A DNA stretch of 14,558 nt from an uncultured delta proteobacterium. GTDB lineage: Bacteria; Myxococcota_A; Polyangia; Haliangiales; Haliangiaceae. Made by a program: the position numbers and the translations under genes. The stretch lies in the NCBI GenBank assembly GCA_963774445.1, contig CAVZFC010000035.1:325470-340027 (forward strand), given 5' to 3'. The notes under the pieces are model-generated. The model did no database searches and was not told where the DNA came from. It worked only from the letters and a program-made list of their open reading frames with translations. Position 1 is the first letter of the stretch; every line of letters starts with the position of its first letter. Below, piece by piece: positions 1,465-13,329 of the stretch.

Positions 1465-4400
1465 ATGGACACGCGGACCGAACTCGAGGGAAGGCTGCGT
1501 CGCGCGCGCGATTGGGGGGGGATGATTGACGTGCTCGAGCGTGAAGCCGAGCAGGTCGGAAGTGAGAGGGAGCGCTCCGAACGGCTCTTCGAGCTCGCAT
1601 CGCTTAGCGAGGAAATCGTGCCAGAGCGCGATCGCGCACTCGCGATCTATCAGCGTGCCTGGAAGCTTCATCCCGAAAACCTCAAAGCACTGGCCGAAGC
1701 CCGCCGCGTCTACCGCGAGCTGGGGCGCCTGGAGATGGTCGCCAAGCTCGGCGAGCTCGAGCTCAAGGCGACCAGCGGTGGCCCCGAGGAACAGGCGATG
1801 CTGGCCGGCGTGGTCGGCGAGGCCTTGCTCGATTGTCGCCAGCGCGACCGCGCGCTGCCGCTGCTCCACCGGGCCCTCGAGGTCTACCCCGAGTCGTCGC
1901 AGCTGCGCGACGCGGTCGCCGCCGCCGACTACGATCCCGAGAGCTGGCTCGACCTGGTCGAGAAGCTGCAAAGCGATGCCGAGCGCGCCGACTCGTCCAC
2001 CGCCGCGCGCATGCTGCTGCGCGCCGCCCGCATCATCCACCAGGAGGTGCCGGGCGATCCGATGTACGAAGATCTGCTCCGCGGCGCGCTGGCCAACGAC
2101 GCGCAAAACGAGAGCGCCAACTTCCTGTTCGAGTCGCTCCTGGCCGCGCAAGAGCGGTGGGACGAGCTCGAGAAGCACCACCAGAAGCGCGCCTACGCGG
2201 CGCCCGACGACACCACCCGCGCGGCGCTCTACCGGCGGTTCGCGCTGGAGTGGGTGCAGCGGTTCAAGGACCGCAGCCGCGGTGCGGCGTTCTTCACCCG
2301 CGCGATCGAATCGGCCCTGGAGGACGGCGCGGCCTTTCCGTCGCTGGTGGCCGCGTTTGGCCTGCTCCGGGAGGTCTACGGTGATCGTGGCGACTGGGAC
2401 TCGCTCTTGCGCCTGGCCGACGCCGTGCTGTCGCGGGTGCCGGCGAACTTCGATCCGCAGCAGCGGCTCTACGTTGCGCTGCAGGCGGCCGGCGCGGCCT
2501 GGCGCGGGCTGGGCGACCTGGACCGCGCGCGCGACTACTTTCACACCGTGCGCGGGCTCGAGCCCGAGGCGCCCGAACTGCACGATTTCGAGACCGAAGC
2601 AGGTGCGGCTATTTCTAGCCCGACACCCCCCTCAGACGACGAAGGCGACGAAGGCGACAACGTGAGCAACCCCGAGACGCAAGACAAGAACAAGAAGTCG
2701 AAGAAGCGCAAGCGCCGCAAGAAGGACAGCTCCGCGCCGTCGCCCGAGGCGGCGGAAGCAGCAGCCGCGGCAGCGACGGAGGGGAACGAGGGCGAGGCGT
2801 CGGACCAGGAAGCGGCAAAGGCCAACGGCGAGAGCGAGCACGCTGATGACGCCGTCGCGGCAGAGGCCGCCGAGACCGGCGCCGACCTGCCCGAGGTGGC
2901 CGCGGCGCCGCCCGCGCCTGCGACCGAGCCGCCCGAAGAAGTGCCGGGTGACGTAGCGTCTGCGATCTCCAGCGCCGGCGGTGATGCCGGCGCGCTGGCC
3001 GCCGTGGTCGAAGCCAATCCGACCCTCGAGGCGCCGCGTCGCGCCCTGGCCGACGCGCTTCGCGGGCAAGAAAAGTGGAAGGAGCTGGTCAACGCCCTTC
3101 GCGACGAGGAGAAGAACGTCACCAGCAAGCGCGGCAAGGTGGCCGCGCTGCGCGACCTGGCCTCGGTCTACCGCGATCACCTGCGCAACGACGTGCAGGC
3201 GATGAACGCGCTGAGCCAGGCGACCGAGGTCGACCCGAGCAACCTCGAGGTCTACGACGAGCTGGCCGGCCAATACGAGGCCAAGAAGCGCTGGCCCGAT
3301 CTGGTCAAGACGCTCGACGCCAAGGCCGATCACGTGCCCGACCCGGCGGCCAAGATCGCCCTGCGCCTGCAGATCGCCAACCTGTACGTCAATCGGTTCT
3401 CCAACCAGGCCGAGGCGATCAAGCAGTTCGAGGCGGTGCTCGAGCTCGATCCCGAGAACCGCGACGCCATCGACCACCTGTTGTCGGTGTACGAGAAGCG
3501 CCGCGACTGGGAGAAGCTCCTCTCCCTCAAGGAAGGCGAGATCGCGCGTACCGACGATCCGGGCGCCAAGTTCGACAAGACCTACGAGGTCGCGCAGCTC
3601 GCGGCCAGCCGGGTCAAGAAGCCCGAGGTCTGCATCGTCTGGTGGGAGCGGGTGCTCGCGCTCGATCCGTCGCAAGAAGAGGCGATCGGCGAGCTGTACA
3701 AGCTGTACGAGCGGGCCAAGGAGTGGGAGAAGCTGGCCGAGATCTGCTCGAAGCTGGCCAACATCGCCACCGACCAGAAGACCCAGGTCGACGCCCTACA
3801 GAAGCTGGGGCTGCTCTACACCGACAAGGTCGAGGATACCGGCAAGGCGATCGACGCCTGGCGGCGCCTCCTGGAGATCGACCCCAACCACCGCCGCGGT
3901 CAGGACTCGCTCAAGAAGCTGTACATCACTGCCGAGCGCTGGGACGACCTCGAGGCGTTCTACCGCGGTCAGGACAAGCTGGACGAGTTCATCCGCGTGA
4001 TGGAGCGCCAGGTCGACCAGTCCGAGGGCGCCGGCCAGCTGTCGCTGGCGATGAAGATCGCGGTCATGTACCGCGACGAGCTGGAGAAGGCCGACCGCGC
4101 CATGCGCGCCTTCGAGCGCGTGCTGCAGATCGACGAGCAGAACCTCGAGGCCGCCGAGGCACTGATCCCGCTCTACGAGCAAGGGCGCGACCCGCGCAAG
4201 CTGGTGCCAGTGCTGGAGATCCAGCTGGCGCACACCGTCGACCCGACCCTGCGCCAGGAGCGCATCCGCTTCCTCGCCGAGTACAGCGAGGAGAAGCTGC
4301 GCGACAAGGGCGCCGCCTTCGGCTGGTGGAGCAAGGCGCAGAGCGAGGACCACGAGGCCGACTGGATCCGCGAGCAGCTCGAGCGGCTCGCGGCCGAGAC

Positions 4401-13329: not shown

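Follow-up and report, generated by a model that had tools for sequence, protein, structure and literature searches.

A giant tetratricopeptide repeat protein that is very probably a GltI (AgmK) counterpart in a Kofleriaceae/Haliangiales-like myxobacterium

The closest described system to the protein reported here is GltI (AgmK) of Myxococcus xanthus, a cytosolic protein that is needed for gliding, is found at focal adhesions and has been proposed to act as a scaffold of several motor units (PMC4508894, PMC11761067). Mutants of M. xanthus in gltI are unable to glide, GltI-YFP appears in clusters that are fixed to the substratum and depend on MglA, and both AglZ and MglA-GTP require GltI for joining the focal-adhesion clusters (PMC4508894). 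AlphaFold-multimer has predicted six sites on GltI for the FHA domain of GltG and two for the GYF domain of GltJ, suggesting that one GltI molecule organises several motor units (PMC11761067). The gene belongs to the M. xanthus G1 cluster, with the order gltD (1,191 aa), gltE (471 aa), gltF (89 aa), gltG (640 aa, carrying FHA and TonB_C domains), gltH, gltI and gltJ (PMC3169522, Table 1); gltI is known from Myxococcales, including Haliangium, and is missing in the paralogous Nfs cluster (PMC3169522). The length of GltI has been predicted elsewhere to be about 1,100 Å. Of all parts of the bacterial focal adhesion machine, GltI is understood least; it is too big for easy genetic or structural work, and in the published focal-adhesion model it could not be placed in the cytoplasmic platform. 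The M. xanthus protein (UniProt Q1D2V1, MXAN_4863) is 3,822 aa long.

We analysed a 14,558-nt stretch of DNA (the window) dominated by a single gene at 1465..13329 on the plus strand, with an ATG start and 3,954 codons plus a stop. The encoded protein is as giant-sized as GltI/AgmK, and like it lacks a signal peptide or transmembrane segment, consists almost entirely of TPRs and ends in a separate C-terminal domain. Whereas M. xanthus GltI comes from the Myxococcaceae, the lineage of the giant is Kofleriaceae/Haliangiales-like. On the basis of synteny, size, architecture and literature, and not of alignment, the giant is very probably an orthologue of GltI (AgmK), the cytoplasmic component of the Agl-Glt machinery for gliding. 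It is best explained as a new member of a known, mechanistically poorly understood family and not as a new kind of protein; as such it is largely explained, and it is ordinary for a myxobacterium.

The open frame is real and under purifying selection. Its translation contains no internal stop, and GC at third codon positions lies between 0.85 and 0.96 in each 900-nt block and comes to 0.93 for the whole frame, compared with 0.37 at second positions, a contrast that runs along the gene and marks it as coding over its entire length. A sequence-only reading of the same DNA had reported the 3,954-codon frame, and this is confirmed. The N-terminus can be aligned with the N-termini of two orthologues (P0129 and P0271), which backs the ATG at 1465 as the start, and a Shine-Dalgarno-like GGAGGG can be read from the sequence at 1448..1453 on the plus strand, 11 nt 5' of this ATG. 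An intergenic scan 5' of the giant found no sigma-70 promoter or terminator, although a sigma-70 scan is uninformative for a myxobacterium. The closest relative at DNA level is the MAG contig L003 (91.5% identity), found by a contig scan with a single-sequence query that reached close relatives only. Against L003, dN/dS of the giant gene is 0.10 in an indel-free comparison of 2,679 codons, falling to 0.03 in the C-terminal domain.

An origin of the frame as an artefact, whether an array expanded in assembly, several TPR genes joined through sequencing errors or a frame left open by chance in DNA of high GC content, has next to no probability. Tandem Repeats Finder found no long-period DNA repeat in the gene, and its paralogous repeat units share on average only 22% identity (maximum 44%); this makes collapse or expansion during assembly very unlikely, and indicates that the repeat array is old and diverged. 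Long spurious frames do arise in high-GC DNA, and an antisense frame at 4771..8952 runs for 1,393 codons without a stop, but the codon-position signature given above disfavours such an origin for the giant. Similarly, the giant is broken by frameshifts in L001, L002 and L003, which are noisy long-read assemblies; against this stand over 100 orthologues, independent of one another and full-length at 3,450-3,946 aa, from various assemblies and technologies, complete genomes among them, together with indel-free orthologue alignments and the low dN/dS. We therefore rejected an assembly artefact or collapsed repeat, given the lack of tandem DNA repeats, the 22% identity of the units and the orthologues without indels. 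As a side observation, the antisense frame of the giant gene is also long and open in L006 and L008, because GC at third positions is about 0.95.

The giant has a computed mass of 449 kDa, a pI of 4.7 and a net charge of -270. Autocorrelation of the protein with BLOSUM scores peaks at lags of 72, 144 and 216, and an iteratively built HMM, with which the repeat units were counted, recovered 47 units of about 72 aa with two TPR-like hairpins each: five in aa 2-359 (1468..2541, plus strand) and 42 contiguous ones in aa 514-3671 (3004..12477, plus strand), the latter array being seen in the orthologue alignments as well. Four additional half-units begin at aa 1181, 1488, 1869 and 2103, and about 98 TPR-like hairpins were counted altogether. 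The repeats belong to the Pfam clan TPR, forming helix-turn-helix hairpins and matching its profiles with scores well beyond the gathering thresholds (TPR_8, 233 bits; TPR_7, 184; TPR_2, 174; TPR_1, 170). The sequence-only reading had thus correctly seen a repeat of about 72 aa and its TPR-like nature, while its estimate of 85-90 motifs was slightly low. Its picture of one continuous alpha-solenoid did not hold, since the array is broken by a linker at aa 360-513 and the last 281 aa are not TPR. That reading had overlooked the disordered linker, the C-terminal domain and the glt gene context. Matches of the giant to the NCBIfam 'equivalog' models for MamA, PrsT and LapB were set aside, as they reflect generic TPR similarity summed over the repeats and not membership; the score for MamA, a 204-position model, exceeds its cut-off only by way of 15 matching stretches.

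The linker (2542..3003, plus strand) is an acidic, low-complexity stretch rich in Ala, Pro and Glu, recognised by its composition and without a match to the repeat HMM. It contains a basic patch, KKSKKRKRRKK, at aa 410-420, and similar acidic linkers occur in three other giants (P0264, P0271 and P0153). Within the long array, four irregular three-hairpin units, each a half-unit set ahead of an 'xLEPIY' unit, keep their positions in distant giants. They lie on the plus strand at aa 1181-1267 ('ILEPIYE'; 5005..5265), aa 1488-1574 ('ILEPIYR'; 5926..6186), aa 1869-1956 ('VLEPIYE'; 7069..7332) and aa 2103-2186 ('ILEPIYE'; 7771..8022), and a fifth, related unit reads 'ALIPLYE' near aa 900. No transmembrane helix was found anywhere in the giant, its best 19-aa Kyte-Doolittle window scoring 1.68 and including Glu residues, and its charged N-terminus argues against a signal peptide, in agreement with what had been read from the sequence. 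By hydropathy and N-terminal composition the giant is therefore a soluble protein of more than 3,000 aa, nearly all TPR, as expected of a GltI-type protein.

Orthologues of comparable length, which the sequence-only reading had proposed to look for, are plentiful. Searching with a 2,255-aa query returned 4,018 proteins at E<=1e-50, and almost all of the best 120 among them are complete giants, about 3,450-3,946 aa long, with 49-96% identity; the full-length orthologues, more than 100 in number, come from Kofleriaceae, Haliangiales, Polyangia and MAGs labelled 'Myxococcales'. A second search from the most divergent giant (P0266) added Polyangiaceae, Labilithrix and the cultured Pendulispora brunnea. 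No protein named as Myxococcaceae is among the matches listed for either search. From about aa 600 to its end, the giant is 60-80% identical to its counterparts in three Kofleriaceae/Myxococcales MAGs, in an essentially gapless alignment, and a relative at 41-53% identity aligns over 3,435 residues against 3,441 in the query. The same constancy extends to nine giants that share 27-45% identity: their alignment is free of gaps from aa 587 (nt 3223) to the C-terminus, with length variation confined to the first ~580 aa. The N-terminal block of five double-TPR units varies among orthologues or is missing from them, with 37-57% gaps when the nine giants are aligned. The gap-free alignment indicates that the core has a fixed set of 41 units, constant in number, order and identity, though the units are mutually only weakly alike. 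Such a fixed, unit-specific core would favour defined docking positions or a defined length over an expandable generic spacer, and strict conservation of unit number is compatible with the idea of a 'ruler'.

The gene context of the giant is of the G1 type. At the 5' edge of the window, which cuts the gene, lie the last 59 codons and stop of a gltG/pglI-type gene (2..181, plus strand, from the frame-2 translation). Its coding tail (nt 2-178) matches positions 592-649 of the 650-position NCBIfam model NF033760 (gliding_GltG; E 1.1e-12) and the AgmX/PglI C-terminal domain NF033768 (40.8 bits, cut-off 40), and is 39-46% identical to the C-termini of GltG-like proteins in L011, L013 and L009. Next comes a gene at 316..1257 on the plus strand, counted from an internal ATG (the longest frame opens with TTG at 259), for a 313-aa TPR lipoprotein with matches to Pfam TPR_1, TPR_2 and TPR_16; the giant follows. 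The lipoprotein is 25-27% identical to TPR proteins of 291-306 aa encoded directly 5' of the giant in L009, L011 and L012, and in the alignment the lipobox Cys that follows a hydrophobic leader is invariant; the position is also filled in L014, the complete genome of cultured P. brunnea (CP089982.1).

More of the cluster is visible in L009, L011 and L014, where the orthologue genes lie 3' of a gltD-E-F-G-like series, as gltI does in M. xanthus. On one strand and in this order, these loci encode a TPR protein of 1,283-1,307 aa, a TPR protein of 483-493 aa, a protein of 87-105 aa, an FHA protein of 684-748 aa, the TPR lipoprotein of about 300 aa and a giant of 3,656-3,939 aa. In L013 an FHA protein is encoded directly 5' of the giant. 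The context of L012 is not of the G1 type, the lipoprotein being the sole conserved neighbour of its giant. The NCBIfam GltG model covers the FHA proteins of L011 and L013 over their full length (2e-111 and 5e-103), the 87-aa protein matches CglF/GltF (6e-16) and the 493-aa protein matches GltE (3.5e-26); these GltG, GltE and GltF scores stay under the equivalog cut-offs, which is what distant orthologues would be expected to give, and are not proof of identity. Two differences from M. xanthus are seen. The TPR lipoprotein stands between gltG and the giant (in the window, L009, L011, L012 and L014) where M. xanthus has gltH, and there is no gltJ 3' of the giant; indeed, neither gltH nor gltJ adjoins the giant at any locus examined. 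The cluster order and the size series nevertheless equal those of the M. xanthus G1 cluster, which marks the giant as the very probable GltI counterpart, and a coupling of GltG with GltI is supported by the way gltG stays next to the giant gene in Polyangia and Haliangiales.

Could the giant instead scaffold a Glt-like envelope machine with a role other than gliding, such as spore-coat or polysaccharide transport as in Agl-Nfs, or belong to an uncharacterised paralogous cluster? M. xanthus does have Glt-like paralogous clusters with other roles, namely Nfs, G4 and G5 (PMC3169522, PMC3858216), and such an assignment would sit well with neighbour scores under the equivalog cut-offs and with the separation of gltH and gltJ from the giant (L009, L011, L013 and L014). 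We consider it improbable, as the paralogous clusters described are devoid of GltI, GltJ and GltK homologues (PMC3169522), so that a GltI-type giant marks the gliding version, and as the cluster order and protein sizes are close to those of G1. The view from the sequence alone, of a giant cytoplasmic scaffold rather than an enzyme, gains support from this GltI/AgmK-type gene order and from the architecture.

TPR solenoids also serve as docking platforms in the shorter scaffolds of myxobacterial motility, SgmX, GltE/AglT, GltD/AgmU and Tgl, and in the eukaryotic proteins TTC21B (IFT-A) and OGT. The giant gives weak matches to profiles of SgmX, GltE, Tgl and the TT21 ARM/TPR domains, but these fall far under the family cut-offs and reflect TPR similarity only. 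Whereas such shorter scaffolds have about 10-40 hairpins, the giant has about 98, held in a fixed 72-aa double-repeat register, and a C-terminal domain of its own.

This C-terminal domain (aa 3674-3954; 12484..13326, plus strand) comprises 281 aa of non-TPR alpha/beta structure and is the most constrained portion of the giant. As described for GltI/AgmK, it is separate and largely helical, a likeness by description. No Pfam or NCBIfam family covers it, even at E<=10 in Pfam, when the domain and four homologues were searched, and neither single-sequence nor profile searches of the PDB matched the domain, the TPR lead-in alone giving matches. An AlphaFold2 model built with an alignment of homologues has a pLDDT of 94.4 with the last TPR unit attached and 93.7 without it, and shows a helical bundle coming after a three-stranded sheet, with 13 helices in all. 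Its resemblance to M48-like zincins is remote (TM 0.31, Foldseek E 0.02). The helix after the sheet, where M48 peptidases carry HExxH, reads AFAAAKKLGF, and the family consensus at the site is A-R-x-L-T-F; the KKLGF motif itself occupies aa 3804-3808 (12874..12888, plus strand). hhalign sets KKLGF opposite HEISH of HtpX, a non-significant pairing (E 0.14). Judging from the model, the domain may have a remote zincin-like fold that has lost its metal ligands, and is probably a binding module.

The neighbouring possibility is an active, TPR-tethered metallopeptidase like BepA, which combines an M48 protease with TPRs, the TPR arm serving to recruit substrates. The modelled fold points in this direction at a distance only, and we regard this alternative as very unlikely. 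Neither HExxH nor HxxEH occurs anywhere in the 3,954 aa of the giant, the His ligands and the catalytic Glu are not conserved in the family (KKLGF here, A-R-x-L-T-F in the consensus), and no peptidase family was matched by sequence, the Peptidase_M48 profile giving no hit at Pfam E<=10. BepA/YfgC, HtpX and Ste24/ZMPSTE24 (M48) and BlaR1 (M56) further differ from the giant in the order of domains, which is reversed here with the TPRs at the N-terminal side, and from them the giant stands apart as a cytoplasmic, soluble protein. Because HExxH is missing and the site reads KKLGF/ARxLTF, we do not file the domain as an M48 peptidase. The sequence-only reading had seen no catalytic domain; functionally this stands, but the zincin-like domain itself had escaped it. 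A profile search with the domain returned 2,706 representative clusters, 621 of them at E<=1e-30, and in these proteins it is nearly always found at the extreme C-terminus. Besides the giants, it occurs in a class of proteins of about 1,600 aa with other N-terminal domains, SIR2-like ones among them.

By analogy with GltI, the giant would lie under the inner membrane as a long and rigid platform for docking. Its individually conserved units may hold several motor-linked tails of GltG and GltJ at defined positions, and the same platform could position AglZ, MglA and MreB. The four or five three-hairpin 'LEPIY' units are candidates for periodic docking sites or kinks, and the dead-zincin domain is a putative peptide- or protein-binding end-piece, not a protease. 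A bolder division of labour, which we offer tentatively and think rather doubtful, would make the core of 41 double-TPR units and four half-units a fixed-length spacer that sets the geometry or spacing of the motor units within a focal adhesion, and the last ~1,300-1,550 aa (about 20 units plus the dead zincin) a portable docking cassette, whose catalytically dead groove holds a peptide from a conserved partner and which is reused in the ~1,600-aa SIR2-like and other fusions.

For a protein of this size, the comparison provides several handles: a fixed-length core conserved unit by unit, an N-terminal stretch of 580 aa that varies, the four or five conserved irregular LEPIY units and a constrained C-terminal domain. 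The new points are modest: the core is free of indels, the zincin-like C-terminal domain has no catalytic motif, and the ~1,600-aa class reuses this domain. Neither Pfam nor NCBIfam has a model for GltI or for its C-terminal domain, and hundreds of GltI-type orthologues in public databases are annotated generically or wrongly. The description of such proteins as poorly characterised is only partly apt, since the family has an experimentally studied member. All the orthologues we found bear the label 'tetratricopeptide repeat protein' or the mistaken 'golgin subfamily B member 1'.

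Directly 5' of the giant gene, the window carries on the plus strand a gene for a TPR lipoprotein of ~300 aa with a lipobox cysteine (316-1257). This gene is kept as the immediate upstream neighbour of the giant in four of the relatives' loci, namely L009 (8959-9861), L011 (8574-9476), L012 (9041-9916) and the complete genome of Pendulispora brunnea (L014, 8797-9717). Its slot corresponds to that of gltH in M. xanthus, and the Glt literature that we consulted names no component that matches it. The corresponding M. xanthus interval holds the discarded ORFs MXAN_4864/65 (agmV), and M. 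xanthus GltI, formerly annotated at 4,132 aa, is now given as 3,822 aa, ~310 aa less. Further upstream, the 5' edge of the window cuts a GltG/PglI-type gene, of which only the final 59 codons (2-181, plus strand) fall inside; they encode a TonB-like AgmX/PglI tail domain.

The C-terminal part of the giant is also found in a separate class of proteins of ~1,600-1,700 aa (P0240, P0191, P0152, P0130, P0135 and P0170), which are colinear with its last ~1,300-1,550 aa at 35-42% identity, C-terminal domain included. Here the shared part is joined to N-terminal domains other than that of the giant. P0240 has an N-terminal SIR2_2 domain (PF13289, 5.6e-11) and the N-terminal sequence of P0191 resembles that of P0240; both P0152 and P0130, when tested, shared a recurring ~170-aa N-terminal domain with no Pfam match, which P0135 and P0170 probably carry too. 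The genes of this class are complete, and the contigs that carry them reach 263 kb in length.

One relative, an 'uncultured Myxococcales' contig (L007), holds just an ORF of 1,627 codons (3675-8555) that matches giant residues 2381-3954 at 68% identity, and no homology to the giant was found in the 3.8 kb upstream of it. Truncation of the gene, a rearrangement or a chimera in the contig may explain this. In L001, L002 and L003, which come from long-read metagenome assemblies, frame shifts split the orthologue into 2-10 same-strand ORFs. Pieces of such frameshifted orthologues appear in protein databases as 'hypothetical' or 'TPR' proteins of 200-600 aa, and some database fragments bear the label 'golgin subfamily B member 1'.

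Minus-strand ORFs within the giant gene (1465-13329) are very long, reaching 1,393 codons (4771-8952, minus strand). A GC3 of ~0.93 on the coding strand accounts for these open frames, which are not genes.

The giant's stop codon is followed by a 58-nt spacer that contains a pair of short hairpins rich in GC: one is GGTCACG-ccg-CGTGACC, the other CCCGGATC-...-GATCCGGG. Beyond it, a plus-strand gene (13388-14542) encodes a 384-aa protein with a hydrophobic N-terminus and, according to Pfam, calcium-binding EGF and Kelch repeats; its adjacency to the giant is not kept in the other loci. In two relatives' loci, minus-strand genes that lie downstream of the giant, at a distance of a few kb, encode a small FHA protein (L002, 13267-13596) and an FHA-GAF-guanylate cyclase (L011, 22171-23790). 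These extra FHA genes are possibly relevant because FHA domains are predicted ligands of GltI.
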